Shown here: piece by piece, positions 2 through 28,194 of the stretch
Position numbering within the stretch: position 1 is the stretch's first letter
Layout of the letters: every line of letters begins with the position of its first letter
From: an uncultured Gammaproteobacteria bacterium
GTDB taxonomy: Bacteria > Patescibacteriota > Patescibacteriia > SG8-24
Length of the DNA: 64,000 bases
Direction: 5' to 3'
Assembly (NCBI GenBank): GCA_964491475.1
Contig: CAZBFO010000002.1
Span: forward strand, 144,501 to 208,500
Made by a program: the position numbers and the translations under genes
The notes under the pieces: generated by a model
What the model saw: only the letters and a program-made list of their open reading frames with translations
Told to the model about the DNA's origin: nothing
Databases searched by the model: none

Positions 2-1798
2 CCGAGCGGCCCGGACCTCTACGAGGACCAGATTGCGGCCATGAGAGTGCTCATTCATCAGTGGAACATGAAGGGTTCACCGGGCGAGGAGCCGGCATAC
101 TTCATGTACCTCACCCCGCAAAACCACTGGAACAACTGGGTCCTTTACGCCGAAGACGCCTTCCCGACCAGCGACAAGTCAGGTTTCCGCTTGGGCTATG
201 ACGGCAAGGAACCGGACAGCTGCGACAACAACAATGACGGCGGCGATGCGGCCAAGAACTGGAACTGCAACGCCATTCATGCCAACTTCGATCCGGTCAC
301 GCACAAGCTGCTGGGCTTCACCGGCACCATCGTCGACAACGACAACCGCAAGCGCAAGCTGACGGCGCCGGTGCAGATTACCGCGCTGATGCGCGAGAAC
401 TGCCTGCAGCTGTCGCAGGTACACAGCAACGTCACCACGCCCAGGAACATCGCCTGGACAGATGTGCTGTACCAGTCGCAGCAAGGTAAGGACGACATCC
501 TCGGCTACAACATGCTGTACAAGCACAACACCTCCCGCACGAATTCGGTTCCTCCGAACGCGGAGTTGAAACCGTACGGCAACGCGATTTCCTCCAACTT
601 GATGACTTCTGGCAAGGACAACATCGACCTGAAGCATCCGGTAAGCCTGTGGTGGACCGAAGGCGGCAGCGGCTACACGTTCTACAACTACACCGGATCC
701 GCGCAGGACAGGCAGGAAAGCGGGGACGAGACCAAGGTGCACTTCGACGGCAAGAACAACCGCGCCTCGGATAACAGCGACGTGCCCGACGTCGGCGGCT
801 ATCCGTACGCCTGCTGGGGACCTTGCGGCGTGGGGGCTTCGTCGAAACTCTGGCCGCAGAATGCCTACGACATCGGCCAAGACAAGCTGTCCAAGTTCTT
901 CGTCACCAGCTGGAGGAAATTCACCTACGCTCCGGCGCAGGCGCCTGGAACCGTGTACAAGCCGGAAAACGGCCTCGATAATCGTCTCAAGTACGCAGGT
1001 TCGGGTGAGGCTCCACGAATCGCGTCGGTCAACCGCTTCAACTGCTCTTCGGACGTTCCCGGCATGTGTGAAGAAGGAACCGAGGGCCTGACCGTAAACA
1101 CTTCGCAGGCCTCGAACGTGATTCCGCAGCAGAAGGGCAAGTTCAAGGCGAGCATCTACTTCTACGCTTGGGCCGACAAGAACCGCTTGCCGCTCCGCAG
1201 GGTCATCGTCGACTTCGGCGACGACACCACGCGTGCGGGTCAGTCGGGCGCGTACCTGAACCACCGCGGCTGCGTCGGTACCGGATGCGGATCTCCCGCA
1301 AACCCGATCTGCGAAGCCAACAACGAGTGGGGCAAGACGAAGCAGACCTGCGAATCCCACTACTTCGAGTACAGCCACACCTACATCTGCACGCCCGACA
1401 TGATCACCGGTCCGGGCAAGTTCGACGCCTGTGATCCGGGGAATCCGCGGTTCCCGTGCCAGGACGGCGTCGCGTGCCACTTCCGGCCGCGCGTGCAGGT
1501 AATGGACAACTGGGGTTTCTGCAACGGTAACTGCAAGGGCATTACCAAGTCCGGCGGAAGGTGCTTCAACATGGGCAACGCCCAGACCGCACCGGACAAG
1601 ATTCAGGAGTTCCTCAACAGCATCTACGTGACCACCGGCGACGACGTCGATCCAGCGACCTGCAATGTCGGGCAGCCGAACGCGGTCAACGAGTGCTGGA
1701 CACTCTCGAACAAGTGCTACTCTGTCAAAGTCAACGGTGCCCAGGAAAAAGCCTGGACCGAATACGCAGGAGACATCATCCTGCAGCCGGAACAGTAG
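2..1798 (+). CDS. Cys-rich secreted protein, 5' end truncated by window edge
   Basis: Open frame runs from nt 2 with no upstream stop. More than 30 Cys spread through a hydrophilic sequence (CDNNNDGGD, NCSSDVPGMCEEG, CQDGVACHF, CNGNCKG). The codon usage matches neighbouring genes. A rho-independent terminator follows. Confidence 0.5.
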   Translation, partial: PSGPDLYEDQIAAMRVLIHQWNMKGSPGEEPAYFMYLTPQNHWNNWVLYAEDAFPTSDKSGFRLGYDGKEPDSCDNNNDGGDAAKNWNCNAIHANFDPVTHKLLGFTGTIVDNDNRKRKLTAPVQITALMRENCLQLSQVHSNVTTPRNIAWTDVLYQSQQGKDDILGYNMLYKHNTSRTNSVPPNAELKPYGNAISSNLMTSGKDNIDLKHPVSLWWTEGGSGYTFYNYTGSAQDRQESGDETKVHFDGKNNRASDNSDVPDVGGYPYACWGPCGVGASSKLWPQNAYDIGQDKLSKFFVTSWRKFTYAPAQAPGTVYKPENGLDNRLKYAGSGEAPRIASVNRFNCSSDVPGMCEEGTEGLTVNTSQASNVIPQQKGKFKASIYFYAWADKNRLPLRRVIVDFGDDTTRAGQSGAYLNHRGCVGTGCGSPANPICEANNEWGKTKQTCESHYFEYSHTYICTPDMITGPGKFDACDPGNPRFPCQDGVACHFRPRVQVMDNWGFCNGNCKGITKSGGRCFNMGNAQTAPDKIQEFLNSIYVTTGDDVDPATCNVGQPNAVNECWTLSNKCYSVKVNGAQEKAWTEYAGDIILQPEQ

Positions 1799-1812
1799 AC
1801 CCTTGCCCTGCA

Positions 1813-1847
1813 AAACGCCGCCTTTCCACAGGCGGCGTTTTTGCTTT
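1813..1847 (+). terminator. rho-independent terminator
   Basis: aaacgccgcc-tttccaca-ggcggcgttt hairpin followed by a T-tract. Confidence 0.7.
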
Positions 1848-1899
1848 GATTTTGCTTAAAAATCGGACTGGATAACTGCCTTCTTCGGCCCCTTGATTC

Positions 1900-4752
1900 G
1901 TGGTATGCTGTACGCGTGGCTATCCCGCAACGTACACGCGCATGTGGGCATCTTTACTGGTCGGAATCTCCGGCCTTCGCAAGCGACTTTTCGCCAGGCA
2001 TGACGATTCGCCGTCGTTGATCACCCGACGTGGACTTGTTGTCGTCGTCTTTTTGGTCGTCTTCGGAACGTTGTTCGTTTCGCATCCCTCCGTGCTCGCC
2101 GACAACACCTCCAACGGCGTCACGGAAGGCATCGGCAACGCCATCGCCACGGCCGTCGGCTTCATCATCGACCTGATGCTTGGCTTGGTGGGCCAGCTGC
2201 TGCTGATCATGATCGGCGCGCTGATCTGGGTGGCGCAATACAACGGGTTCGTGACGGCCGTGCCGGTGGCCCAAGGCTGGACCATCGTCCGCGACGTCAC
2301 CAACATGTTCTTTATCGTCATCATGCTGATTTACGCCTTCGGTACCATCCTCGGCGTAGATGCCTACAGCGCCAAGGGCGGCGCCATCGTCAAGCTGCTG
2401 ATCATGGCCGTCGTGGTCAACTTCTCGCGCACCATCTGCGGACTGCTCATCGATGCCAGCCAGGTGGTCATGCTGACGTTCGTCTACGGCTTCAAGGAAG
2501 CGGCCGGCGGCAACTTCGCCGACGCCCTCGGCATCACCAAGCTGATGCAGCTGAAAAACGAAGGAACCGTCTCCGCCTGGTCCGTGACGGTGTCCCTGAT
2601 GTTGGCACTGCTCATGACCTCCGTTTCGCTGATGGTCGTCGTGGTCATGACCATCTGCCTGGCGGTGCGCATCGTCATCCTCTGGCTGCTGATCGTCATG
2701 TCGCCGTTGGCTTTCCTGACGCGAACCGCGCCAGGAAGCTTTGCCAAAGGAAAGTATGCCGACTGGTGGAAGAAGTTCACCGCGCAGCTGGTCTTCGGTC
2801 CGGTAATGGCGTTCTTCCTGTGGTTGGCGCTGGTGAGCGTCGGTTCCTCCGAGTTTTCCGGCCAAGGGTTTCCTCCGATGAACTCGGGCGTAGGCAACGT
2901 CGGTACGGTCAACTCGAACGCTTCCGAGGCGTTCGGCGACATTCAGATCCAAAAGTTCATCATCGCCATCTGCCTGCTGTTCGGCGGCCTGCAAATGGCC
3001 AAGGAGGTGGCCGACAACATGTCCGTTTTGAGTCAGGCAAAGGACAAGGTCAAGGGCGCGTACTCGGCCGCCAAGGGCGTCTATGACCGCGGGAAGACCG
3101 TCGCCAAAGGCACGGCCAAGGTCGCCGGCGTCGCCGGATCCGCAGGCATCGGCCTGGTGGACATCGCCAGCGGAGGCAGGGGCACCAAGGCCAAGAACTG
3201 GGCGCTTACGCAAGCGGCAAAAGTTCCGCTTATCGGCGGCGCCGCAGAAGCAAAACTTAGTCGTGACAAGGCCGCGAACGAGGAGGTCGCGAAGAAGGCC
3301 GCAGGAAGGGCGTCCAAGGCCAGCGAGGAGCTGGTCAAGTCGCGCGCCAACGAGAAGCTGTCCGCCGTCACCATGGACGGCCAGATCGAGCGCAACGAGT
3401 TCCAGAAGAAGCGCGTGCAGGATCTCGCCAAGAAGTCCAAGAAGAAGCAGCTGACCCAAGAGGAACGGCAGGAATACTTCCGATTGGCCAAGAGCATCAA
3501 GAAACACGGTGACAAGTTCGATGACGACTCCGGCGACAAGGTGCTGGAGGGAATAGAGAAGAGGAACCCGTCGCTCATCGTCGACGAGAACGAGAAAGAC
3601 CCTGCCGAGAGGAAACGTCAGGCTGAAGCATTCGTGAAATCGGCGCGGTCCCTCAACAAGCAGGACTTGGCCGACATGGACCCGGATGCCCTCAAGGGCA
3701 ATGCCCAGCTGCAGGCGTTCCTGTCGCCCAAGCAGGTGCTGGAAGCGCAAAAGATCGCCACCGGCGACAACCTCGAGGCTCTCGAGAGAATGGGTTCCAA
3801 CGAGAGCGAAATCAAGGCTTATCAGGAGGGTTTGCGCAACCGCGCCGACGTCTTCGCCTTCAACTCCGAGCAAGACCGCGCGGCCCGCGTCTCCGGAATG
3901 TCCGAAGATCAGCTCAAGGAGCTGGCGGGCAATCCGGGAGTCGGTGCCGAGGCCTTCGGAGGTTCGGTGCTTCAGGCGGCCGTCGCTGCCGGTACTGCGG
4001 GGGCGCTTGCCGACAAGCTCGCGCCGACGCTCTCGGCCCAGACGCTGGAAGACAACGACGCACTCGCCGATCAGATCGCCAGGGGCATCAGCGCCAGCTC
4101 GCTGGCGAGCCTGTCAAAGGATGTCGGCGACGTGCTCCGCGAACGCGTCGCGGAAACCGATCCGGCAAAGGCGATGGCCGGAGGAGCCAAAATGGAACAG
4201 GTCTTCGGCGGCTACGGCGGAGACGGCAGCTTCGATACGGTCGAGAATCGCGCCGCATTCGAGAAGTACCTGCAGGACGGACTTACGGACAAACGCGCCG
4301 GCTCGATTCCGGCCGATGCCATCGCCAGGAACGGCGGCATCAACGACGTCTCCATCTCGATGATCAAGAACCTTGAAGTGAGCGACCTGCAGAAGATGGC
4401 CAAGGACGGCAAGACCGGTCAGGTATCGGAACTGCTGTCCGCCATGGAGAAGTTCTCCAAGGTCGACACCAGCGATCAGGCGGCGGTCGATAAGTTCATC
4501 GTTGAGAATGCCGGCGTCACGGTGAACGAGCAGGAACTGCGCGCGGTCATGACCAAGGCGGCCCAGACTCTGGCCGACTCCGCCGGCGCCAACAGCCCCA
4601 TCCGCGCGGCCCAGCAGGAAAAGGCCACGATGCGCGCGGTCGAGGCTGCCGCCCGCAAGGCGGCCGAAGCGGAAAACCGGCGTCAGGCTTTCGAGCGGAA
4701 GCTTCTAGGCAGGATACCCAAGCGCGACCGACGCACCAGCAGGAATAAATAG
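1900..4752 (+). CDS. VirB6/TrbL-like polytopic T4SS membrane protein with long C-terminal hydrophilic extension
   Basis: The N-terminal ~300 aa contain 6-7 predicted TM helices (GLVVVVFLVVFGTLFV, IIDLMLGLVGQLLLIMIGALIWV, MFFIVIMLIYAFGTILG, LLIMAVVVNF, LMLALLMTSVSLMVVVVMTICLAVRIVILWLLIVMSPLAF, VFGPVMAFFLWLALV). The following ~650 aa are Ala/Lys/Glu-rich and low-complexity, as in ConG/TcpH/PrgH-type VirB6 homologues. It is the first gene of an operon that contains VirB3 and VirB4. Start codon is uncertain (GTG 1900 or ATG 1942). Confidence 0.55.
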   Translation: MVCCTRGYPATYTRMWASLLVGISGLRKRLFARHDDSPSLITRRGLVVVVFLVVFGTLFVSHPSVLADNTSNGVTEGIGNAIATAVGFIIDLMLGLVGQLLLIMIGALIWVAQYNGFVTAVPVAQGWTIVRDVTNMFFIVIMLIYAFGTILGVDAYSAKGGAIVKLLIMAVVVNFSRTICGLLIDASQVVMLTFVYGFKEAAGGNFADALGITKLMQLKNEGTVSAWSVTVSLMLALLMTSVSLMVVVVMTICLAVRIVILWLLIVMSPLAFLTRTAPGSFAKGKYADWWKKFTAQLVFGPVMAFFLWLALVSVGSSEFSGQGFPPMNSGVGNVGTVNSNASEAFGDIQIQKFIIAICLLFGGLQMAKEVADNMSVLSQAKDKVKGAYSAAKGVYDRGKTVAKGTAKVAGVAGSAGIGLVDIASGGRGTKAKNWALTQAAKVPLIGGAAEAKLSRDKAANEEVAKKAAGRASKASEELVKSRANEKLSAVTMDGQIERNEFQKKRVQDLAKKSKKKQLTQEERQEYFRLAKSIKKHGDKFDDDSGDKVLEGIEKRNPSLIVDENEKDPAERKRQAEAFVKSARSLNKQDLADMDPDALKGNAQLQAFLSPKQVLEAQKIATGDNLEALERMGSNESEIKAYQEGLRNRADVFAFNSEQDRAARVSGMSEDQLKELAGNPGVGAEAFGGSVLQAAVAAGTAGALADKLAPTLSAQTLEDNDALADQIARGISASSLASLSKDVGDVLRERVAETDPAKAMAGGAKMEQVFGGYGGDGSFDTVENRAAFEKYLQDGLTDKRAGSIPADAIARNGGINDVSISMIKNLEVSDLQKMAKDGKTGQVSELLSAMEKFSKVDTSDQAAVDKFIVENAGVTVNEQELRAVMTKAAQTLADSAGANSPIRAAQQEKATMRAVEAAARKAAEAENRRQAFERKLLGRIPKRDRRTSRNK
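1901..1909 (+). promoter_or_regulatory. candidate extended -10 element (TGgTATGCT) upstream of the T4SS operon
   Basis: TGGTATGCT matches the TGnTAnnnT extended -10 consensus. It overlaps the GTG at 1900 that the ORF track uses as the start. The true start of the VirB6-like gene may therefore be downstream, for example ATG 1942. Confidence 0.25.
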
Positions 4753-4760
4753 CACTTCCT

Positions 4761-6062
4761 ATGGAAGAGGCGCAACAGGCGACAACTGAAACGGCGGCCG
4801 AGGCTCCCGCTAAATCGCCAGAAGGGCAGGTCATCGCGCCGGTCGCAGAGAACGACGATGCGGGCGGCGGACCCGAAGTCGGCGTTTTGGTGCGCATCAA
4901 AAGCCTGCCCCAGGCGGTCTTCGATTATCTGATGTCAGACGACCTGGTGAAGCTGCATCAGACCGTCTATGACCAGCACGGCCTCAAGCCCGAGGAGCGC
5001 GATGCCGTCTATTACGCCGAACTGCAGACGTTCCTCGGCGAGCTCGGCCTCAAGGAATTTCCGGGGGAATTGTGGAGCCGCCTCGGTTGGGAAGAATCGC
5101 GCGACGAGCAGGTCATCGCCTTGGCCGTGGACGTGCTCGGTTTCGTCTTCTTGCCGGCGCAGGCGCATCTCGGAGACGTTGCCGGCGTCATCGCCGAGCT
5201 CGGCGGGGACATCAAGGCGTTTCCCGAAAAGCAGCTTGAGGTACGCAGGATCACTTACGCGCAGGGATCGGCGGAAATCGCCGAAGTGGCCGATTTGGGC
5301 GAAGAGGACGACGGCACTATGCGCAAGCGCCTGGCGTTCATCATCGAGTCGCGGTTGCGCCACGTGCGCACCAACGTCGCCGTAAAGGAGATGCTGATGC
5401 GCGGCAAGAAGACCGGCGGCATGGACCTTTCGGAGCAGGAAGCCGACAAGATCATCGAACTCCTGGAGTCGAAGACCCGCATGACCTCGTACGCCGACGT
5501 CCTCGGAGAAGAGCCTGCCGCGGCTGCCGGGGGAGAAGAGCCGGAATATGCCGCAGAGGACATCAAGAGGATTTTTGCAGGTACTGCCGAAGAACAGGAG
5601 GCGCTCGGGAAGCGCATAGGACGTTTCGCCTCGGTCACTGCCGGCGACCCGTCCAAGATGCGCGACGCCTTTTACCAGGTGATCGCGCCTGCCGACGGCA
5701 GTCCCATCGATCCGCCGTACGTCGTCGCCGGACTCATTTCGATGGCTGACGGCGACAAGATTTCCGACGCTTTGGCCGAAGACGAGCGCTATCGCACGTT
5801 CGTCCGCGAATACCTCAAGGGAAAAAAACGCGACGCCGAAGCAGAGGCCTTCGATGCAGATCCGACCGATGCCAAGTACATGAACATCCTGCTGCAGTAC
5901 CTCTTGCGGGGCATCGCAGGCTACGACGATGCCGATTCCGCCCGCCTCGGGCTGCACGTCATCAACCTGCTCAACAAGCAGGGGTACAATCGCTACGCCG
6001 AGCTGGTGGCCTTCGACATGAAAGAAGGCGAATTCCGATGGAAAGACCTTGTTGAACCATAG
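4761..6062 (+). CDS. hypothetical acidic protein (T4SS operon member)
   Basis: 433-aa acidic ORF, 9 nt after the VirB6-like gene and in the same operon. No recognisable motif. Confidence 0.5.
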   Translation: MEEAQQATTETAAEAPAKSPEGQVIAPVAENDDAGGGPEVGVLVRIKSLPQAVFDYLMSDDLVKLHQTVYDQHGLKPEERDAVYYAELQTFLGELGLKEFPGELWSRLGWEESRDEQVIALAVDVLGFVFLPAQAHLGDVAGVIAELGGDIKAFPEKQLEVRRITYAQGSAEIAEVADLGEEDDGTMRKRLAFIIESRLRHVRTNVAVKEMLMRGKKTGGMDLSEQEADKIIELLESKTRMTSYADVLGEEPAAAAGGEEPEYAAEDIKRIFAGTAEEQEALGKRIGRFASVTAGDPSKMRDAFYQVIAPADGSPIDPPYVVAGLISMADGDKISDALAEDERYRTFVREYLKGKKRDAEAEAFDADPTDAKYMNILLQYLLRGIAGYDDADSARLGLHVINLLNKQGYNRYAELVAFDMKEGEFRWKDLVEP

Positions 6063-6077
6063 CTGAACGAGTCCCGT

Positions 6078-7376
6078 ATGGCCGATACCACCTCCCTTCC
6101 CGGTTCCGACGCAACGTCGGACGCAGCCAAAAAAGCGCCTTCGAACGACGGGGGATTGACCAAGGAGTCTTGGCTCGACCTGTCCGACGCCTCCATTCCC
6201 GTGATCGACCCGCAGGGCAAACAGGTGGTCCTGAAAGGGGCCGGCTTTGTCGATCCTGCTCCTGCGCCAGTCCCGGCGGTTCCCGCTGCCTCGCAGCCGG
6301 CTGTCGCCAAGGCGGCACCCCCTCCTCCGAACCTTCCTTTGGTGGAAGAAAAACCGATTACGGCCGAGCCGGTCGGCGCGCAACCTGTCACCTCGCTGGC
6401 CGATCTCGGACTCGACGACGCCGCGGACGTCGCCGAAATCAAGAAGATCGAACAGAAGACGGCGGTGAAGTCCGTGGACGCTTCCGTAAAGAAGGACTTG
6501 CCGCTGCTGGAGTCGATGGTCGAGGATGCCGTCAACGGCACGGACGCCAACGTCACCGACGTCAGCATGCGCCGCCGTTTCAGCCTTCTCATTTCGCTCT
6601 TCTTCCGCGACTTGCGCGACGGCCTGGAAACGAAGTCCAAGTTCACCATGCCGGTACAGAGCGGGGGGATGGGCTTCGACGACGCTACCGCCGATCGGGT
6701 GCTGGAAGAGCTGGTAAGGCGCAACAAGTCGTACAAGGAGGCGCTCACCGGCAAGGCGGCAGACGACAAGTCGCAATACGTCGCCAAGCGCACCGAGACC
6801 GTCCTCAACCTGCAGGAGAACATCGACCGCGCCGAGCAGGAACGCGGCGACAAGGCGTTCGAGGGCCTGATGCAGCGCGTCGGCACGCGTGCCGAGGAGC
6901 AGCCGGCGCCGCGGCCCGCAGAACCAAGGTCGATTCCGGTCATCGGTCTCGACAAGAAACCGACGCCTTCGGCCGCGCCGCAAGTCGTCGGCACCGCCGG
7001 GATCGGCTCCGTCAACCGTCCCACCGTCTCGGATGTCGCCTATGCGCCGAAGCTCACCGGGCCGGTGGAAGAGCTTCGCCAGCTGACCCTCAAGGACTTC
7101 CGCCGCCTTTCCCGCGACCCCAAGGAGGCTACGCTCAAGATCAAGGACAAGATCGACCTTCTCGAGGAGCAGTCTTTCGAAGTGAAAACCGCTGGCGTCA
7201 GCGCCTGGCACGATTGCGAGGTGAACCGGCTGTACTTGGAAATCCTCCGGCAAAGCTTGGACGGAAAACCGATCATGGACGTGATAGCCGATCTCGACCA
7301 GAAGGCATTGCCTGCGCTCACCAAAGACGAATTCGACGTGATCATGCAGTTGAATCAAAAATTGCGCTTTGGTTAG
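6078..7376 (+). CDS. hypothetical protein with Pro/Ala-rich low-complexity N-half (T4SS operon member)
   Basis: 432-aa ORF with a PAPAPVPAVPAASQPAVAKAAPPPP tract and a C-terminal globular region. Tightly spaced in the operon. Confidence 0.5.
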   Translation: MADTTSLPGSDATSDAAKKAPSNDGGLTKESWLDLSDASIPVIDPQGKQVVLKGAGFVDPAPAPVPAVPAASQPAVAKAAPPPPNLPLVEEKPITAEPVGAQPVTSLADLGLDDAADVAEIKKIEQKTAVKSVDASVKKDLPLLESMVEDAVNGTDANVTDVSMRRRFSLLISLFFRDLRDGLETKSKFTMPVQSGGMGFDDATADRVLEELVRRNKSYKEALTGKAADDKSQYVAKRTETVLNLQENIDRAEQERGDKAFEGLMQRVGTRAEEQPAPRPAEPRSIPVIGLDKKPTPSAAPQVVGTAGIGSVNRPTVSDVAYAPKLTGPVEELRQLTLKDFRRLSRDPKEATLKIKDKIDLLEEQSFEVKTAGVSAWHDCEVNRLYLEILRQSLDGKPIMDVIADLDQKALPALTKDEFDVIMQLNQKLRFG

Positions 7377-7433
7377 CGAAATAAAGTGTGGAAAGGTGCA
7401 CGGCCTTAGGTGTGCTATAGTGTAAGCAGCGAT

Positions 7434-7859
7434 ATGCGATACGTGGTACCGCAGTTCATCGACGTGGAAGACAAAATTCTCGGCCCGCTGACGGTCCGGC
7501 AGTTTTTGATCCTGCTCGCCACCGCGCTGGTCATGTTCGTCGAGTACAAGCTGTCCGACTTCGGGCTGTTTCTCGCGGTGAGCATTCCCTCGTTCGCCAT
7601 CGGCGGCACCTTCGCCTTTTTCCGGGTGAACGGCCAGCCGTTCCACTTCTTCCTGCTGAACCTGCTGCAGACGTTCCGTCGTCCGCCTCTCCGGAGCTGG
7701 GACAAGGAACAGTCCGACGCCGAACTGCTGGACATCATCCGCAAGCCGCCGCCGCCCGCGCCGCCGGCCCGCATTCGCAAGGAGGCGCTGGCCAGCACCA
7801 AGCTGACGGAGCTTTCCCTGGTCGTCAACACGGGCGGCGTCTACAATCCCGACGCATAA
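7434..7859 (+). CDS. VirB3/PrgI-like small membrane protein
   Basis: About 140 aa. The N-terminus reads FIDVEDKILGPLTVRQF followed by two hydrophobic helices (LILLATALVMFVEY, LFLAVSIPSFAIGGTFAFF). It lies immediately upstream of VirB4, the canonical VirB3-VirB4 synteny. An alternative GTG start lies at 7410. Confidence 0.55.
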   Translation: MRYVVPQFIDVEDKILGPLTVRQFLILLATALVMFVEYKLSDFGLFLAVSIPSFAIGGTFAFFRVNGQPFHFFLLNLLQTFRRPPLRSWDKEQSDAELLDIIRKPPPPAPPARIRKEALASTKLTELSLVVNTGGVYNPDA

Positions 7860-7877
7860 GACACGTACTCCACGCAC

Positions 7878-8591
7878 ATGGCGCAGGAACAAGAGATGCA
7901 ATCAAGGAAGTTGGCCGGCGGCAAGCCGGGTCCCGCGACCCAGCGATTCTTGGATATCGCCGAAGTCAAGGAGGACGTGATGGTCATGAAGGACGGCACC
8001 ATGCGCGTGGTGCTGATCGTTGCCAGCATCAACTTCGCGCTCAAGTCCGAGGACGAGCAGAACGCCATCATCTCCGCCTACGTGCAGTTCCTCAATGCGC
8101 TGGAGTTCCCGCTGCAGGTGGTGATTCAGTCGCGCCGCCTGAACATCGACAAGTACATCGAGCGCCTCAAGGAGTCGGAAAAGAACCAGACCAACGAGCT
8201 GCTCCGCATGCAGATCAAGGACTACCGCAACTTCGTGCAGGAACTGGTCACGCTCGGCCAGATCATGCAGAAGCAGTTCTTCGTGGTCGTCCCGTACAAC
8301 CCGTTGTCCGACAAGCGCAAGGGCTTTTTCTCGCGCCTGTCCGAGGCTTTTTCGCCGACGCTGTCCGTCCGCCTGGCAGAGGACCGTTTCCGCCAGCGCA
8401 AGAACGACCTGCAGACCCGCGTCGACCACATCATCAGCAACTTGGGCAGCATGGGCCTCAAGGCCGTCCAGCTCGACACGCAGAGCCTGATCGAGCTGTT
8501 CTACCGCGTCTACAATCCGGAAACCTACGACACGCAGAAGATGCAGGACTCTTCCAAGCTCCGCGTCACCGATGAAATCACGACCGTCTAA
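7878..8591 (+). CDS. VirB4 N-terminal domain encoded as a separate ORF (split VirB4)
   Basis: MVMKDGTMRVVLIVASINFALKSEDEQNAIISAYVQFLNALEFPLQVVIQ matches the N-terminal KDG...(L/I)N(F/Y)...SEEEQ...F...LN module of Gram-positive VirB4s (ConE/TcpF/PrgJ type). It ends 5 nt before the ATPase ORF, which lies in the -1 frame. Confidence 0.5.
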   Translation: MAQEQEMQSRKLAGGKPGPATQRFLDIAEVKEDVMVMKDGTMRVVLIVASINFALKSEDEQNAIISAYVQFLNALEFPLQVVIQSRRLNIDKYIERLKESEKNQTNELLRMQIKDYRNFVQELVTLGQIMQKQFFVVVPYNPLSDKRKGFFSRLSEAFSPTLSVRLAEDRFRQRKNDLQTRVDHIISNLGSMGLKAVQLDTQSLIELFYRVYNPETYDTQKMQDSSKLRVTDEITTV

Positions 8592-8596
8592 CGCCT

Positions 8597-10507
8597 ATGG
8601 CATTCACCCCCGGACAATTCGCTCCCGGCACCGGTCCGACGCCGCAACAGCAGCGGAAGGCGGCTGCGGCGCCGACGAAGAAGGCGCAGGAATCCGAGCA
8701 GATCGCCAAGGAGAGGGAAGTGCTCGAAGAGGAGCGCATCTACCGCCGCGGCGTCATCTCCATCAAGGACGTCATCGCGCCGGCCGGCATGAAGATCGAG
8801 CCGACGTACCTGGTGCTCAACGAGACCTTCGTTCGCACCATCTTCGTCGTGACTTATCCGCGTTACATCTCTCTGGGATGGTTTGCTCCCATCGTGAACA
8901 TGAACCACCCGCTCGACGTGGCGATGTTCTTCTATCCGGTGAAGCCGGAAGTCATTCTCAAGCAGCTCAAGAAGAAGGTCGGTACGCTCGAAGCGCAGAT
9001 CATGTCGGACTCGGAGAAAGGCGCGCCCCGCGACCCCATCCGCGAAACCGCCCTCCGCGACATCGAAGAATTGCGTGACTCGCTTTCGCAGGGAACCGAG
9101 CACTTTTTCCAGTTCGCGCTCTACGTCACCGTCTACGCCAAGGACAAGAAGGAGCTCGACAAGCAGACCGAGGACGTCGAAGCGCTCTTCGGCGGCAAGC
9201 TCATCTATACCAAGCGCGTCTTCTATCAGTCGGAGCAAGGCTTCAACTCGACCATGCCGCAGGGCAACGACGAGCTGATGATCACCTTCAACATGAACTC
9301 GTCGCCGGTGGCGTCGTCGTTCCCGTTCATCTCGGCCGACCTGACCACCGACAACGGCATCCTTTTCGGCGTCAACCGCCACAACAACAGCCTGGTCCTG
9401 TTCGACCGCTTCTCGATGCAGAATGCCAACTACATCGTGTTCGCCACTTCCGGCGCAGGCAAGTCGTACTGCGTCAAGCTCGAGATTCTGCGATCGCTGA
9501 TGGTCGGCACCGAGGTCATCGTCATCGACCCGGAAATGGAATACAAGCACCTGTCCGACGCGGTCGGCGGCACCTACATCAACCTGTCGCTGGCTTCCGA
9601 CGCCAAGATCAACCCGTTCGACTTGCCGCGCGCGGTCGGCGAGCAGATCACCACCGAGGACATCATCCGCAGCGCCGTCATCACCGTGAAGGGCCTTTTG
9701 CGCATCATGTTGGGCGGCAACGTCTCGCCGCAGGACGACTCCACCCTCGACCGCGCCCTGCTCGAAACCTACGCCAAGAAAGACATCACCCCCGACGCCG
9801 ACCTGGCCAAAGTGGAACCGCCGATCATGCAGGACTTCGTGGAAGTGCTCGAGGGCATGGAAGGCACCAAGGACATCGTCATCCGCCTCAAGAAGTTCAC
9901 CGAGGGCACCTTCGCCGGCCTGTTCAACTCGCCGACGACCATCACCATGCGCAACGTGCTGGTGACCTTCTCGGTCCGCGACCTCGAGGACGAACTGCGC
10001 CCGCTGGCCATCTACGCCATCGTCAACTACATCTGGAACGTCGTCCGCTCGGAGCGCAAGAAGCGCATCCTGGTCATCGACGAAGCCTGGTGGCTCATGC
10101 AGAACGAGGACTCCGCCAAGTTCATCTTCGCGCTGGTCAAGCGCTGCCGCAAATACTACCTGGGCGTCACCACCATCACGCAGGACGTCAACGACTTCCT
10201 CCGCAGCCCTTATGGCCAGGCCATCGTCACCAACTCGGCCATGCAGATGCTGCTCAAGCAGTCGCCGGCGGCCGTCGACAACATTGCCAAGACCTTCCTG
10301 CTGACGGAAGGGGAGAAGTTCCTGCTCTTGGAGTGCGGCGTCGGCGAAGGCATCTTCTTCGCCGGCAACAAGCATGCGGCCATCAAGGTCGTGGCCTCGT
10401 ACGCCGAAGACCAGGTCGTGACCACGAACCCGCAGCAGCTGCTCGAGATCGAGCAGGCCAAGAAGGATTTCCAGAAGGCCCAGGAAGAGGAGGCCAACAA
10501 GAAGTAG
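8597..10507 (+). CDS. virB4: VirB4/TrbE/CagE-family T4SS ATPase
   Basis: Middle-domain signature TYLVLNETFVRTIFVVTYPRYISLGWFAPIV. Walker A is FATSGAGKSY and Walker B/DEAW box is RILVIDEAWWLM. The C-terminal region reads TTITQDVNDF. Confidence 0.85.
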   Translation: MAFTPGQFAPGTGPTPQQQRKAAAAPTKKAQESEQIAKEREVLEEERIYRRGVISIKDVIAPAGMKIEPTYLVLNETFVRTIFVVTYPRYISLGWFAPIVNMNHPLDVAMFFYPVKPEVILKQLKKKVGTLEAQIMSDSEKGAPRDPIRETALRDIEELRDSLSQGTEHFFQFALYVTVYAKDKKELDKQTEDVEALFGGKLIYTKRVFYQSEQGFNSTMPQGNDELMITFNMNSSPVASSFPFISADLTTDNGILFGVNRHNNSLVLFDRFSMQNANYIVFATSGAGKSYCVKLEILRSLMVGTEVIVIDPEMEYKHLSDAVGGTYINLSLASDAKINPFDLPRAVGEQITTEDIIRSAVITVKGLLRIMLGGNVSPQDDSTLDRALLETYAKKDITPDADLAKVEPPIMQDFVEVLEGMEGTKDIVIRLKKFTEGTFAGLFNSPTTITMRNVLVTFSVRDLEDELRPLAIYAIVNYIWNVVRSERKKRILVIDEAWWLMQNEDSAKFIFALVKRCRKYYLGVTTITQDVNDFLRSPYGQAIVTNSAMQMLLKQSPAAVDNIAKTFLLTEGEKFLLLECGVGEGIFFAGNKHAAIKVVASYAEDQVVTTNPQQLLEIEQAKKDFQKAQEEEANKK

Positions 10508-10510
10508 CCT

Positions 10511-11131
10511 ATGCAGCGCCGCACCAAGATCATCATCGCCGTCATCGTCCTCGTCTTGCTCGCGCTGATCGCGATGCTGTTCCTGCTGAAGCCTCCGGCG
10601 GCCGCTCCGGCCCCCAAGCCGACGCCCGCGCCTGCGGCCAACGTCAACGTGAACAGGCCGACGACGCAGAACACCAACAACCGGCCCGCAGGTAACGTCA
10701 ACGTCGCGGTCAGCACCAACGCGCCGCCACCCGCGCCGGCCGACGACAAGACCGGTCTCAAGAACACCGCGCGTTCGTTTGCCGAGCTGTTCGGCAGCTC
10801 CTCGACCGAAGGCAATTATCAGAACATCGTCGACGCCGAGTACTACATGACGGCCTCGGTTAAGGCCTGGGCGGAACAGTACGTCGCCGAGCAACGCGCC
10901 AAGCCGAAGACCGGCGAGTTTTCCGGCACTACCACCCGTGCCATCTTCGAACCTGACGTGCTGGCGTATGACAAGGACGCAGGCACGGCGACGGTCGTGG
11001 TGAAGACCCGCCGCATCGAGACCGGCGCCACCATCGGCGCGCAGAACGTGTACTACCAGGACCTGACCCTGAACTTCGTGAAGGCGGGGGAGGCCTGGAA
11101 GGTGAACCGCTTCACTTGGGGAGACAAGTAA
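10511..11131 (+). CDS. membrane-anchored protein with Pro-rich linker and about 120-aa C-terminal domain (VirB8-like candidate)
   Basis: N-terminal TM helix (IIIAVIVLVLLALIAMLFLL), then a PAAAPAPKPTPAPA linker, then a globular domain ending EAWKVNRFTWGD. Its position directly after VirB4, together with this architecture, fits VirB8/ConB-like bitopic components. No sequence-level proof. Confidence 0.4.
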   Translation: MQRRTKIIIAVIVLVLLALIAMLFLLKPPAAAPAPKPTPAPAANVNVNRPTTQNTNNRPAGNVNVAVSTNAPPPAPADDKTGLKNTARSFAELFGSSSTEGNYQNIVDAEYYMTASVKAWAEQYVAEQRAKPKTGEFSGTTTRAIFEPDVLAYDKDAGTATVVVKTRRIETGATIGAQNVYYQDLTLNFVKAGEAWKVNRFTWGDK

Positions 11132-11150
11132 AAGGAAATCTGCACGTGAG

Positions 11151-11177
11151 GCGAGCCCGCGAGGCTCGCTTTCGGTT
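11151..11177 (+). terminator. weak hairpin/attenuator between T4SS operon and comFC
   Basis: gcgagcc-cgcga-ggctcgc followed by tttcggtt. Confidence 0.3.
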
Positions 11178-11210
11178 CTCCGCCAGCCGATTTGCGCCGC
11201 TTCGTCCGAC

Positions 11211-11918
11211 GTGGTAAGCGGACCCCGTATGCCGATGCCTTCGCTTCGGGTCGCCGCCGAACTGGCCTGCAGGGTCGTCTTTCCGCACTTTTGCGTGGGC
11301 TGCAAAGAGGAAGGGCAGGTGCTTTGCGCTGACTGCGATCTGGAGTTGCGCGTCTTGGGGAGCGGCAGCTTCGGCTTACCGCCGAAGGGAGACGGCCGCT
11401 ATGCCATCGACTCCCTTGCCAGCGCGCTGCCGTACGCGGAGCCGGTGCCGCGCACCTTGCTGCAACAGTACAAGTACGAGCGCGTAGAGGAGGCTGGCGC
11501 GGCGGTCGTCGAGGCGTTCGGACGTTTCGTGCGATGGAACGAAGAACGTTTCTGCGCCATGGCCGAAGGCGCGGTCGTGCTGCCAGTGCCCATGCATCCG
11601 TGGAAGCAGGCGTGGCGCGGCTTCAATCAGGCCGAGACGCTTGCCGCCGTCTTTGCCGTAAACACCGGCTCGCGAGCGGCGAGAGGCGTCCTTTGCCGGC
11701 GCTTCGGACTGAAGGCGCAGGCCCAACTGCGGGATCGCGACATGCGAAGCGCCAACGCCTCGGGAAGCGTGCGGGTCGCGCGAAAGTTTCCCGCCGGAAC
11801 CCGCTTCATTTTGGTCGACGACGTCTTTACGACGGGAGCGACGCTTGACGCCTGCGCGGACGCGCTCAAGCGCGCCGGAGCCGGGGAGGTCCATGCCGTC
11901 ACGTTCCTGAAAGGATAA
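11211..11918 (+). CDS. comFC: ComF-family competence protein (ComFC, phosphoribosyltransferase domain)
   Basis: N-terminal zinc-finger cysteines (CVGCKEEGQVLCADCDLEL). The C-terminal PRTase motif is FILVDDVFTTGATLDACADALKRAGA. Confidence 0.8.
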   Translation: MVSGPRMPMPSLRVAAELACRVVFPHFCVGCKEEGQVLCADCDLELRVLGSGSFGLPPKGDGRYAIDSLASALPYAEPVPRTLLQQYKYERVEEAGAAVVEAFGRFVRWNEERFCAMAEGAVVLPVPMHPWKQAWRGFNQAETLAAVFAVNTGSRAARGVLCRRFGLKAQAQLRDRDMRSANASGSVRVARKFPAGTRFILVDDVFTTGATLDACADALKRAGAGEVHAVTFLKG

Positions 11919-17865: not shown

Positions 17866-17953
17866 TGGCGGAGGGGGTGGGATTCGAACCCACGGAACCT
17901 TTCAGTTCGGCAGATTTCAAGTCTGCTGCCTTAGACCGCTCGGCCACCCCTCC
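17866..17953 (-). tRNA. tRNA-Ser (anticodon UGA)
   Basis: Reverse complement is GGAGGGGTGGCCGAGCGGTCTAAGGCAGCAGACTTGAAATCTGC...GTGGGTTCGAATCCCACCCCCTCCGCCA. Anticodon loop is CUUGAAA. It has a long variable arm, a TpsiC loop and an encoded CCA. Confidence 0.85.
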
Positions 17954-18058
17954 ACGTGTCCGTAGTGTACGGTCGGAGGCCCATTTTATCAATACTTTAG
18001 CCTTATCTTCAGCCCTTCACAAAAACGGGTCGAGCCGATAGTATGTCCGTACAAACGG

Positions 18059-18147
18059 GGAGGGCTGCGCCGAATGGTAAGGCACCAGTTTGCTAAACTG
18101 TGACTCCGCAAGGAGTCTTGTGGGTTCGAGCCCCACGTCCTCCGCCA
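18059..18147 (+). tRNA. tRNA-Ser (anticodon GCU)
   Basis: GGAGGGCTGCGCCGAATGGTAAGGCACCAGTTTGCTAAACTGTGACTCCGCAAGGAGTCTTGTGGGTTCGAGCCCCACGTCCTCCGCCA. Anticodon loop is UUGCUAA. It has a long variable arm (GACUCCGCAAGGAGUC), a TpsiC stem-loop and CCA. Confidence 0.8.
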
Positions 18148-24549: not shown

Positions 24550-24626
24550 GCGTCCGTAGCTCAGTTGGATAGAGCGCAGCCCTGCGAAGGCTGAGGTCCG
24601 ACGTTCGAATCGTCGCGGACGCACCA
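24550..24626 (+). tRNA. tRNA-Arg (anticodon read as GCG)
   Basis: GCGTCCGTAGCTCAGTTGGATAGAGCGCAGCCCTGCGAAGGCTGAGGTCCGACGTTCGAATCGTCGCGGACGCACCA shows a canonical cloverleaf with CCA. Anticodon loop is CUGCGAA. A GCG anticodon is unusual for bacteria, where ACG is typical. Confidence 0.8.
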
Positions 24627-24725: not shown

Positions 24726-25724
24726 TCAGCGCCGCTTCTTGCCCTTGGCCTGCGTCTCGGGCTTGGCCTGCTTCTCCTTGACCTTGTAGGTCGCGGGGAT
24801 GGTCAGGCTGGCCTTGCTCGAGGCCTGGGCGCTGGCGATGCGCTGCTGCTTCTTGGCGTCGGCTCGCGTGGCGTGATCGGCAGCGATCTTGGCGCGCACG
24901 TCCGCGAGCTCCTGCTTCTTCGCCTTGACGGCGTCGATGGCGGCGCGTCGGACATCGGCGCGGGTCTCGTTGCCTTCCTCGGGCGGAAGGGCCTTGAGGG
25001 CCTCTTCCATCTCCGCGATGGTCGTCTTGAGCGCCGCGGCCTGCTTTTCCAGGTCGCTGGGCTTGCCGGTGACCTTCGGAGCGTCGTGCTTCCGCTCGGC
25101 CGTGAGGCTGTTCGAGAAGCGCGGGCTGCCGTTGTGGCTGCCGGAGTTCCCCTGCGGACGACGGTTGCCCGTCTTCTGCCGGGGCTGCGTCGACCGCTTG
25201 ACCCGCGCGATGAAGTTCTTCACTTCCTCGGCGGCCTGGGCGATCATCTCCTCCGTCAGCATGGTGCCTTCCGGAGCGATCTGCCGGCGCTTGGCGGTAC
25301 CGAGCACGTCGTTGATCGCGCCCTCGATCTTCTGGATCTCGGACGGGTCCCAGCGGCGCATCTTCTTGTACATGTCCTCGGCCAGGACGAACGGCCTCTC
25401 GGACGCCTCGAGCTTGGCTTTGGCGACCAGCGCCGTCAGCAGCTCCGGACCCTTCGGCCGTTCCTCGCGGACCGGCTTGGGGTGTTCGGCGCGTTCGCGA
25501 TCGAGGAACGCGGAGAAGGCCTTGGCCTGCTCCGGATCCTTGATCTGCTTGAGCAGCGTGCCTTCGCCCCAGGGGAGCGCTCGCCGCACGGCGGCGGAGA
25601 TCGGTTCCTTGAAGCGTGCGACGTTCTTGTCGACGGCGCCGTCGAAGCAATCGACGGCCGTCTGGAGCGTGTGCTCGTGAGCGGCAGGCATGGACGTGGT
25701 GGAAGGAGCGGTATTCGTGGTCAT
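24726..25724 (-). CDS. hypothetical protein with basic Lys/Ala-rich C-terminus
   Basis: MTTNTAPST start. Coherent 333-aa ORF with no recognisable motif. Confidence 0.4.
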   Translation of the reverse strand: MTTNTAPSTTSMPAAHEHTLQTAVDCFDGAVDKNVARFKEPISAAVRRALPWGEGTLLKQIKDPEQAKAFSAFLDRERAEHPKPVREERPKGPELLTALVAKAKLEASERPFVLAEDMYKKMRRWDPSEIQKIEGAINDVLGTAKRRQIAPEGTMLTEEMIAQAAEEVKNFIARVKRSTQPRQKTGNRRPQGNSGSHNGSPRFSNSLTAERKHDAPKVTGKPSDLEKQAAALKTTIAEMEEALKALPPEEGNETRADVRRAAIDAVKAKKQELADVRAKIAADHATRADAKKQQRIASAQASSKASLTIPATYKVKEKQAKPETQAKGKKRR

Positions 25725-25919
25725 GACTTGTACCTCCGTGTCACTGTAGGAGAAAAAAGGTCGCCTAACGTGACCCGATAACATAGCATAAAAACGCTAT
25801 TTTGTCAACCTGCACCGTCAGTGCTACCAAGCCCGCTGCTGGGCGTCTTTTTTGGCTAAAGTCAGCTCAATCGCTACTTTCTAGTGCAGACCCGCATTTT
25901 GGCTTATGATTAGCGGCGT

Positions 25920-28055
25920 ATGGTGAGACTGGAAACGGCGGTTTCGGCCTTGGGGCCGGTGGCCAAGCGGCGCGCCGCGCTGCTGTCGGAACTGGGATTG
26001 GAAACGGTCCGGGACGTGCTTTTGCATTTCCCCAGCCGTCACGAAAATTTCCAGACAGGCACGCCGTTGGCCGAGATCGAGCCGGGAACGAACGTCTCCG
26101 TGATCGCGCAGGTGGTCCGTGCCAAGAGCAGGCCGCGGTTTGGCCGCCGGATGTCGATGTCAGAAGCGGTGCTGACGGACGGGACGGCTGAAATAAAAGC
26201 TGTCTGGTTCAATCAGCCGTATCGCGCCAAATCGCTCACGGAGGGAAAGTCGTTCCGGTTTTCGGGGAAGGTGACGCAATCAAGGTTCGGCCTGCAGCTG
26301 CAGAACCCGCAGGTGGAGGCGATTTCGGGGTTCGCGCCGTCGGCTCCGGGCGAAGGCGACGATCCGAAGGAGGGGGAAGTGCTTGGCGGCGCGGACTTGC
26401 TGCCGGTGTATCCGACCACCAACGGCGTCACGCAGCAGACGCTGCGTCTGATCGCGCGATTGGCACTGCCGGCAGTCGGACAGCTGTCCGATCCGTTGCC
26501 CGAGCACGTGCGCCGCACGTACTCGCTGCCGACGCTGCCCGACGCGGTGCGCTGGGCGCATTTTCCCGTCTCTGCCGAGGATGCCGCCAAGGCTCGCCGC
26601 CGGATCGGCTTCGACGAGATGCTGCGGATGCAGTTGTCCATCGGCAAGATGCGGCGGCTGCGTCAGGCGCGATCGGCTCCGATGATTGTCTTCGACGAGC
26701 CTGCTACCAAGTCGTTCGTGCGGTCATTGCCATTCGCGTTGACCGACGATCAGCGCAAGGCTGCTTGGCTGGCGCTCAAGGACATGACCACCGGTTTTCA
26801 GATGCACAGGCTTCTCGACGGCGACGTCGGGAGCGGTAAGACGGTCGTGTCGGCCATAGTGATGATGAACGTCGCTCGCGCCGACTATCAATCCGCGTTG
26901 ATGGCGCCGACCGAAATCCTGGCGGCGCAGCACTTCGCCACGCTGTCGCGTTTCTTCAGGAGGGAGCCGTTCACGGTGGCCATCTGGACGCAATCGTACA
27001 AGCGCGCCGTCCGTGGCGGCAAGGAGATCGTCTGCAAGACCAAGAAGGAAGTCGAGCGCCTGGGAAAGGAGATCGCCGACGGGGAAATCGCCGTCGTCGT
27101 GGGAACGCATGCGCTGGTGGAGGATGCGCTCAAGTTCAACGCGCTGGCGCTGGCGGTGGTGGACGAGCAGCACCGCTTCGGCGTGCGGCTGCGCAGCCTG
27201 TTGGTGGGGAAGAGCGGCATGAGGGGCGTGGAGCCGCACCTGCTCTCGATGACTGCTACGCCGATTCCGCGTTCGTTGGCGCTGGCGATGTTCGGCGATT
27301 TGGACCTGTCGCTGCTCAAGGAGAAGCCGAAAGGCCGCATCGACACCGAGACGCGCCTGGTGCTTCAGAAAGAGCGTGCCAAAGCGTACGAGAAAGTCCG
27401 GTCAGAAGTCGCGGCCGGCCGTCAGGCGTTCGTGGTCTGTCCGCTGATCGATCCGTCGGACGCGCTGGGCGCGGCTTCGGTCACCGAGGAATACGAGAAC
27501 CTGCGCAAGAGGGAACTCAAGGGCATTCCGATGGGCATGCTGCACGGCAAGCTGTCCGCAGAAGAGAAGGAGAAGGTGATGGCCGACTTTCTGGCGAGCA
27601 AGATCATGGTGCTGGTCTCCACTTCGGTGGTGGAGGTGGGCGTGGACGTGCCGAACGCCACCGTCATGTGCATCGAGGGTGCGGAGCGTTTCGGCCTGTC
27701 GCAGCTGCACCAGTTCCGCGGGCGCATCGGGCGCGGCGAACATCCGTCGTACTGCTTCCTGCTGCCGAGCAGCTTCTCGCCGAGCGTGAAGGAACGCATG
27801 TCGGCCGTGGTGCGCCACAAGGACGGCTTTTCGCTGGCCGAGAAGGACCTGCAGATGCGCGGTCCCGGCGACATGCTGGGAACGGCGCAGTCCGGTTTCC
27901 CAGAATTCCTGATGGCCGCGTTCGGCGACGCCATGCTGATTGCCGACGCCAAGGAGGCGGCCGAGGCATTGCTCGAAGAAGATCCGGAACTGGTGCGGCA
28001 CGAGGCCTTGCGGAAGGACCTGCGGGCCGCCGCGGAGCGCGTACATTTGGAATAA
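25920..28055 (+). CDS. recG: ATP-dependent DNA helicase RecG
   Basis: Wedge domain, Walker A GDVGSGKT, a DEQHRFGV box, and helicase C motifs. Confidence 0.9.
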   Translation: MVRLETAVSALGPVAKRRAALLSELGLETVRDVLLHFPSRHENFQTGTPLAEIEPGTNVSVIAQVVRAKSRPRFGRRMSMSEAVLTDGTAEIKAVWFNQPYRAKSLTEGKSFRFSGKVTQSRFGLQLQNPQVEAISGFAPSAPGEGDDPKEGEVLGGADLLPVYPTTNGVTQQTLRLIARLALPAVGQLSDPLPEHVRRTYSLPTLPDAVRWAHFPVSAEDAAKARRRIGFDEMLRMQLSIGKMRRLRQARSAPMIVFDEPATKSFVRSLPFALTDDQRKAAWLALKDMTTGFQMHRLLDGDVGSGKTVVSAIVMMNVARADYQSALMAPTEILAAQHFATLSRFFRREPFTVAIWTQSYKRAVRGGKEIVCKTKKEVERLGKEIADGEIAVVVGTHALVEDALKFNALALAVVDEQHRFGVRLRSLLVGKSGMRGVEPHLLSMTATPIPRSLALAMFGDLDLSLLKEKPKGRIDTETRLVLQKERAKAYEKVRSEVAAGRQAFVVCPLIDPSDALGAASVTEEYENLRKRELKGIPMGMLHGKLSAEEKEKVMADFLASKIMVLVSTSVVEVGVDVPNATVMCIEGAERFGLSQLHQFRGRIGRGEHPSYCFLLPSSFSPSVKERMSAVVRHKDGFSLAEKDLQMRGPGDMLGTAQSGFPEFLMAAFGDAMLIADAKEAAEALLEEDPELVRHEALRKDLRAAAERVHLE

Positions 28056-28194
28056 GCCCGACATCTGACGGCCTCGCCGGCCATGTTGACTTTTACCGGT
28101 CTTTTTGCGACTGTGCAGCCGTTCCGGGCACGTGCTCGGCAACCGTCCGCCGCATTGGCGGGCGAACGCACATTGCCAACAAAACGGAGCTCAA

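Follow-up and report, generated by a model that had tools for sequence, protein, structure and literature searches.

The locus described here raises the question of why the VirB4 ATPase of a type IV secretion system (T4SS), known elsewhere as a single chain, should be written in two reading frames. In a 64,000 nucleotide stretch of contig CAZBFO010000002.1 (assembly GCA_964491475.1; the whole stretch is called the window in what follows) a first open reading frame (ORF1) with the marks of the VirB4 N-terminal domain is followed, after five nucleotides and in the -1 frame, by a second one (ORF2) carrying the ATPase. A first-pass annotation, made from the sequence alone, had described the two ORFs and their junction with coordinates that we find to be correct, and had left the choice open between a genuine domain split, a programmed -1 ribosomal frameshift and an assembly indel. 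Only the genuine split stands. The locus is very probably a normal, conserved and published two-gene TrsD plus VirB4 T4SS locus of Patescibacteria (Uhrbacteria-like), in which the VirB4 function resides on two separately translated genes; the arrangement is already known as a documented feature of the whole phylum, with plasmid pGO1 as its prototype. The elements at the junction are the following.

7410..7859, plus strand: PrgI-family (VirB3-like) small membrane protein (Pfam PrgI, 37.4 bits with a cut-off of 27)
7878..8591, plus strand: ORF1, TrsD-like protein of 237 amino acids, with homology and fold similarity to the first ~180 residues of fused VirB4
8592..8596, plus strand: spacer CGCCT of 5 nucleotides between the TAA of ORF1 and the ATG of ORF2
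8597..10507, plus strand: ORF2, VirB4 ATPase of 636 amino acids (CD1110 / MPF-FATA type), identified by NCBIfam, Pfam and BLASTP

ORF1 starts with an ATG and ends with the TAA at 8589-8591. The KDG, INF, SEDEQ and F(L)N signature on which the first-pass annotation relied is present at residues 38-40, 51-53, 57-61 and 71-73 (as FLN), in columns which are invariant or nearly invariant in the family alignments. The homology to the VirB4 N-terminal domain proposed on this basis is borne out by profiles, by profile alignment to a fused VirB4 (hhalign probability 98%, see below) and by fold. Among the profiles, Pfam TraC_F_IV is matched with 28.2 bits, a narrow pass over the cut-off of 28.1 (profile positions 13-175 of 375), NCBIfam VirB4_plasma with an E value of 1.4e-12 (positions 107-233 of 894), and the NCBIfam CD1110-family VirB4 over positions 14-105 of 752. 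An alignment of 81 diverse homologues, which is also the source of the ORF1 family profile used throughout, gave an AlphaFold model with a pLDDT of 88.5 and a pTM of 0.78; the model from an earlier shallow alignment of 21 close homologues was unusable (pLDDT 49.8). When the former was compared by Foldseek to the Protein Data Bank (PDB), each of the 14 best matches was a TrwK/VirB4 chain from the R388 T4SS (entries 8RTB, 8RTD, 7O41, 7O42 and 7O43; probability 1.00; E values from 8.5e-4 to 1.3e-2), and later matches were noise. Among the comparisons of ORF1 with the PDB only that of folds reached TrwK/VirB4; searching the PDB sequences with the family profile of ORF1 returned nothing relevant (best match a ketoacyl-ACP reductase, E 1.1).

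Some details of ORF1 concern its ends and its classification. The true start may be the ATG at 7896 instead of that at 7878: many homologues (231-234 amino acids) begin at the equivalent of M7, the first of three residues (M7-Q8-S9) that do not vary across the 21-sequence alignment. Residues 214-237 form a variable low-complexity tail. The Pfam family PF26593 is precomputed on nearly all homologues of ORF1, and was absent from our local Pfam scan of ORF1 and ten of its homologues.

ORF2 is composed of a variable leader rich in Gly, Pro, Gln and charged residues (residues 1-57), followed by the VirB4 middle and ATPase domains, and profiles and motifs agree in this with the earlier description. 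It matches NCBIfam NF045971 (CD1110-family VirB4) with 330.8 bits, over the cut-off of 325, at positions 178-730 of 752, leaving the first ~177 positions of the model unmatched. Its P-loop motifs are a Walker A SGAGKS (within ATSGAGKSY) and a Walker B ILVIDEAW (within RILVIDEAW), and its Pfam matches are P-loop_TraG (88.2 bits), AAA_10 and CagE_TrbE_VirB. Since residues 75-201 still match CagE_TrbE_VirB and positions 274-349 of TraC_F_IV, the break is located inside the TraC/VirB4 N-terminal domain as defined by Pfam, and not at the boundary between N-terminal domain and ATPase. ORF2 lacks the N-terminal ~180 residues that a full-length single polypeptide of the CD1110 family would include; by its profile matches it is a CD1110-family VirB4 minus the first ~180 residues.

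That the two ORFs are complementary becomes evident by comparison to a single-chain VirB4, for which we used the 754 amino acid protein of the Carboxydocella plasmid pCCELLA01. The ORF1 family profile aligns to residues 5-176 of this fused protein (hhalign probability 98%, E 6.5e-14) and ORF2 residues 58-618 align to its residues 186-750 (BLASTP E 2e-72), while the ORF1 profile finds no TrsD-like segment inside ORF2 (hhalign probability 0.09%). As the alignments are collinear and ORF2 is devoid of the TrsD region, ORF1 and ORF2 represent non-overlapping collinear halves of one VirB4. The split point corresponds to about residue 180 of the fused relative, and in the window the equivalent of residues 177-185 is taken by a stop codon, the 5 nucleotide spacer and a new ATG. 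The statement that both ORFs together make up one normal VirB4 holds end to end against the full-length Gram-positive-type protein, and the pair is, as judged by these alignments, not a VirB4 accompanied by an extra paralogous domain. The single-chain proteins of the CD1110 family, whose whole length is covered collinearly by the pair, differ from it in being one polypeptide, the pair having in addition a variable low-complexity tail at each side of the break. Both halves are functional genes under purifying selection, with dN/dS values of 0.125 for ORF1 and 0.075 for ORF2 against the closest relative (L001, dS ~0.5).

The same split is found in the relatives of the locus. The best 120 of 6,438 database homologues of ORF1 are all stand-alone proteins of 226-241 amino acids with 64-93% identity. 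When 1.84 billion representative proteins were searched exhaustively, 2,565 clusters (50% identity) were obtained at E <= 1e-3, of which the best 150 are all stand-alone proteins of 116-453 amino acids, down to ~33% identity, with no full-length VirB4 among them. In a scan that took one genome from each species, a relative was detected in 588 stretches; the best 80 loci, all from metagenome-assembled genomes (MAGs) of the Patescibacteria/Uhrbacteria type, were analysed, and the junction statistics refer to the 76 of these which have both genes. The homologue of ORF1 is closed by a stop codon in all 76, the genes overlap in none, and the homologue of ORF2 always has its own ATG, which reads ATG-GCN in 69 loci. 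Spacers range from 1 to 352 nucleotides, with a mode of 1 nucleotide ('TAATATGGC'), and are not longer than 12 nucleotides in 52 loci and longer than 60 nucleotides in 15. Counted from the frame of gene 1, gene 2 is in the same frame (0) in 22 loci and displaced by +1 in 30 and by +2 in 24, and a Shine-Dalgarno-like motif precedes gene 2 in only 14. The median identity across relatives is 61% for ORF1 and 72% for ORF2, the former being less conserved. A comparison of orthologous loci had been proposed in the first-pass annotation as a check, and the same split in 76 of 76 loci, together with the lack of any fused form in the best 150 clusters, shows it to be ancestral and conserved.

Nearly all 80 loci share the gene order prgI - trsD-like - virB4, and the genes are co-oriented. 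A PrgI homologue was found in 78 of the 80, and its tabulated positions are all immediately 5' of the homologue of ORF1. In the window itself the true start of prgI is probably the ATG at 7434 and not the listed GTG at 7410, the translation from the former beginning with MRYVVPQF, which fits the N-terminus of the PrgI family.

A few of the homologues are of unusual length. Five homologues of ORF1 (P0198, P0137, P0125, P0147 and P0270) carry low-complexity Gln/Pro/Ser-rich extensions of 80-230 amino acids at their N- or C-terminus, akin to the leader of the window's ORF2 with its Gly, Pro and Gln residues. Fusions of PrgI to TrsD were considered for homologues with N-terminal extensions of 80-140 amino acids and rejected, the extensions being low-complexity and Q/P-rich and containing no PrgI domain; the apparent fusions in two further loci (L002 and L016, ORFs of 373-374 amino acids) are an artefact, the prgI stop lying just inside the BLAST hit. 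In one locus (L055) the ORF of the VirB4 homologue (~4754-8656) is ~1,300 amino acids long, twice the usual length, which suggests a fusion with the downstream gene or a stop codon missing in the assembly.

The closest known system is the T4SS of the Patescibacteria themselves, for which a TrsD-like protein has been described as the most abundant component, one that usually adjoins virB4, is remotely homologous to the N-terminus of VirB4 and has no assigned function (Quinonero-Coronel et al., Microb Genom 2025, PMC12102498). The same work counts 2,272 TrsD homologues across 2,221 assemblies of Patescibacteria and classes 1,664 of these as virB4-associated by a near-virB4 criterion; about a quarter are located away from virB4, as is generally the case in Gracilibacteria. 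TrsD is otherwise known from the pGO1 subclass of MPF-FATA (PMC12102498). In Ca. Southlakia epibionticum the T4SS is reported to be essential for epibiotic growth (PMC12102498, citing Wang et al. 2023), and the TrsD homologue of strain ML1 is listed as essential (PMC12102498). The main text of an earlier study, Guglielmini et al. 2014 (PMC4027160), makes no mention of TrsD.

The window locus shows no substantive difference from this description. Its nearest relatives are Uhrbacteria and other Patescibacteria MAGs, and it combines a VirB4 of the Patescibacteria clade, placed there by best hits, with PrgI/VirB3 and TrsD-like proteins of the MPF-FATA class, the trsD-like gene lying on a chromosome directly beside virB4. 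Like TrsD, ORF1 is a stand-alone protein of ~200-240 amino acids encoded between a VirB3-like gene and a VirB4 ATPase gene, and is homologous to the N-terminal portion of VirB4 according to profiles, hhalign and fold. A free N-terminal domain beside a free VirB3, to which the first-pass annotation attached mechanistic interest, has already been published (PMC12102498), and the same order is found in pGO1. The published account contains no explicit statement that the neighbouring VirB4 is missing the TrsD segment. The demonstration that it is, and the junction statistics across 76 species, are what is new here, each of them a small increment.

The Staphylococcus aureus conjugative plasmid pGO1 has the order VirB3-like/TrsC, TrsD and VirB4-type TrsE, encoding a VirB3-sized protein at 25492-25899, the 227 amino acid TrsD at 25886-26569 and, after a spacer of 14 nucleotides, the ATPase TrsE at 26584-28602 (672 amino acids). 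TraD and TraE of pSK41 are the equivalents of TrsD and TrsE. Residues 18-214 of the ORF1 profile align to residues 31-217 of pGO1 TrsD (hhalign probability 84%, E 7.7e-6), and residue 8 of TrsE aligns to residue 28 of ORF2 (BLASTP E 1e-41; 24% identity between the ATPases). From the limits of these alignments it follows that pGO1 and the window share the split point within ~10-20 residues. In distinction to the window locus, which is chromosomal, the conjugative plasmid pGO1 carries both a relaxase and a coupling protein, neither of which was identified in the window, and the homology between the two pairs is only remote. Both forms of VirB4 occur on Bacillota plasmids, split in Pontibacillus (274 + 621 amino acids) and C. 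botulinum (334 + 660 amino acids), and fused in Carboxydocella pCCELLA01 (754 amino acids) and B. cereus pJ62_2 (830 amino acids).

Some Gram-negative systems, such as those of Campylobacter and Actinobacillus plasmids, have VirB3-VirB4 fusion proteins (cited in PMC12102498). These involve the same interface between VirB3 and the N-terminus of VirB4, at which gene boundaries are evolutionarily fluid, and differ in that they represent a fusion and not a fission; among the homologues checked here there was no PrgI-TrsD fusion, and P0198, P0137 and P0125 have Q/P-rich low-complexity sequence in place of PrgI in their N-terminal extensions.

The first gene (7878-8591) provides the TrsD-like equivalent of the first ~180 residues of a single-chain Gram-positive VirB4, and the second (8597-10507) the second half of the N-terminal domain together with the P-loop ATPase domain. 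We propose that the TrsD-like protein would pack non-covalently on the N-terminal part of the ATPase protein and so rebuild the VirB4 N-terminal domain. In the R388 cryo-EM structures of Mace et al. 2022 (PDB 7O41 and related) this domain reportedly contacts VirB3 at the membrane, and PrgI, encoded immediately 5', would be the expected partner of the rebuilt domain. As no Shine-Dalgarno-like motif lies upstream of the ORF2 start in the window, and as in most relatives the spacer is short and such motifs are rare, ORF1 and ORF2 are probably translationally coupled; gene 2 would then be translated mostly by termination and re-initiation, yielding nearly equimolar halves, and no fusion protein would be made.

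Some points weigh against this explanation or limit it. With a spacer of more than 60 nucleotides in 15 of the 76 relatives, translational coupling cannot be universal. The similarity of ORF1 to the TrsD/TraD family itself (NCBIfam NF041427) amounts to an E value of 4.1e-5 and 23.5 bits, far under the cut-off of 200, for which reason we call ORF1 TrsD-like, a term denoting remote homology and not membership of the subfamily. The Foldseek TM-scores on the query for TrwK are moderate (0.33-0.50), in an output that does not give the matched TrwK residues. Lastly, no experimental report of an association of a TrsD-like protein with the ATPase or with PrgI was found in the literature.

Other explanations have to be weighed against the published two-gene locus. 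One reading, which we think unlikely, takes the TrsD-like/VirB4 pair for the product of a single ancient fission common to the pGO1-type plasmids and all Patescibacteria, kept because the detachable module would regulate the timing or stoichiometry of the docking of the ATPase ring on the PrgI/VirB3 platform. The data are compatible with it, since the split point coincides in pGO1 and Patescibacteria within ~10-20 residues and Bacillota show an alternation of split with fused forms. If true, the split would not be a neutral change of a gene boundary.

The TrsD-like protein could also be an independent accessory or regulatory factor which descends from the VirB4 N-terminus and has ceased to function within VirB4, for instance an assembly chaperone or a factor of different stoichiometry, and not a docking half of the ATPase. 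We regard this as rather improbable, even if the location of about a quarter of Patescibacteria TrsD homologues away from virB4, generally so in Gracilibacteria (PMC12102498), the spacers of more than 60 nucleotides in 15 of 76 loci, the long disordered Q/P-rich extensions of some homologues and the lower conservation of ORF1 would all be in line with a protein acting on its own. It is however precisely the ORF1 segment that ORF2 lacks, the two being collinear and non-overlapping on the fused VirB4, and the order prgI - trsD-like - virB4 is strict in nearly all loci. The alternation of fused and split forms among related Bacillota plasmids is, moreover, the pattern expected of a functionally neutral fission and fusion.

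A programmed -1 frameshift of the ribosome close to the end of ORF1, which would give a single VirB4 of 870 amino acids and possibly a free N-terminal product in addition, has in our judgement hardly any chance of being correct. Only the geometry of the window is in its favour. The junction reads ...ACC GTC TAA CGCCT ATG GCA..., the frame of ORF2 is -1 (= +2) relative to that of ORF1 (7878 mod 3 = 0, 8597 mod 3 = 2), and it is open from 8576 onwards; because it contains a TGA at 8573-8575, the only interval permitting a change of frame to a fused product is 8576-8588. The first-pass annotation had pointed to a slippery heptamer or a pseudoknot as the signs to look for. There is no X_XXY_YYZ heptamer in 8470-8591, and hence none in the permissive interval, no homopolymer run of 4 or more nucleotides near the junction, and the junction RNA, including that downstream, is no better folded than its shuffles (z = +0.95). 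Among the relatives, the frame relation of 22/30/24 and the spacers of 1-352 nucleotides make a conserved frameshift signal impossible, and the second gene has its own ATG in every locus (ATG-GCN in 69 of 76). As a conserved mechanism, frameshifting is refuted by these sequence comparisons.

That a single virB4 gene was broken by an indel of assembly or sequencing, or else by a recent pseudogenising mutation, has nothing to recommend it beyond the short 5 nucleotide spacer and the frame offset and can be given practically no credence. The independent assemblies of 76 species have the two-gene structure with differing spacers and frames and cannot share such an artefact. The best 120 homologues all stand alone, the junction has no homopolymer run, and both halves are under purifying selection.

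Around the three genes at the junction the window contains the following further features, the first two entries lying 5' of prgI and the others 3' of virB4.

41-1798, 1900-4752, 4761-6062 and 6078-7376, plus strand: four large co-oriented ORFs without Pfam family
6078..7376, plus strand: the last of these, the upstream gene (432 amino acids), no Pfam family, part of the conserved neighbourhood
10511..11131, plus strand: small gene (206 amino acids) with a hydrophobic N-terminus, no Pfam family, kept in some relatives
11211..11918, plus strand: ComF-like protein with a phosphoribosyltransferase domain (Pfam Pribosyltran, 34 bits; weak double zinc ribbon)
25920-28055: RecG helicase
43758-45128: phosphoglucomutase/phosphomannomutase-family enzyme
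51443-53848: phenylalanyl-tRNA synthetase beta chain (PheT)

The conservation of the immediate neighbours was assessed by tblastn in the 80 related loci. A relative of the 6078-7376 gene is present directly 5' of the prgI homologue in 73, a relative of the ComF-like (competence-type) gene downstream of virB4 in 60, and a relative of the 206 amino acid gene 3' of virB4 in 31. The four large ORFs at 41-7376 are candidate T4SS components, e.g. VirB6-, VirB8- or pilin-like proteins. In some loci (L010 and L037) the tblastn matches of 6078-7376 overlap those of 4761-6062, which suggests that these two ORFs may have a domain in common.

The housekeeping genes within the window (RecG, PheT, the phosphoglucomutase-family enzyme and the tRNAs) place the T4SS locus on a chromosome, as opposed to a plasmid or any obvious mobile element. 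The tRNA genes are a divergent tRNA-Ser pair in 17866-18147, with TGA on the minus strand and GCT on the plus strand ~105 nucleotides apart, and a tRNA-Arg (GCG) at 24550-24626. Opposite the T4SS genes there are two long antisense ORFs, 4935-7901 (minus strand, 988 amino acids) and 8588-11305 (minus strand, 905 amino acids). Given the GC content of the window of 61.5% and the good support for the genes on the sense strand, these are most likely open frames driven by GC content and not genes.

For annotation, this means that the 237 amino acid gene should be labelled as a TrsD-like VirB4 N-terminal module, and that the pair should not be recorded as a frameshifted or disrupted virB4 pseudogene. 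For the biology of the family, the complementarity of the two halves gives, as an incremental clarification of a published observation and not as a discovery, a concrete hypothesis for the function of TrsD, which would be that portion of VirB4 by which VirB3/PrgI is expected to be held.

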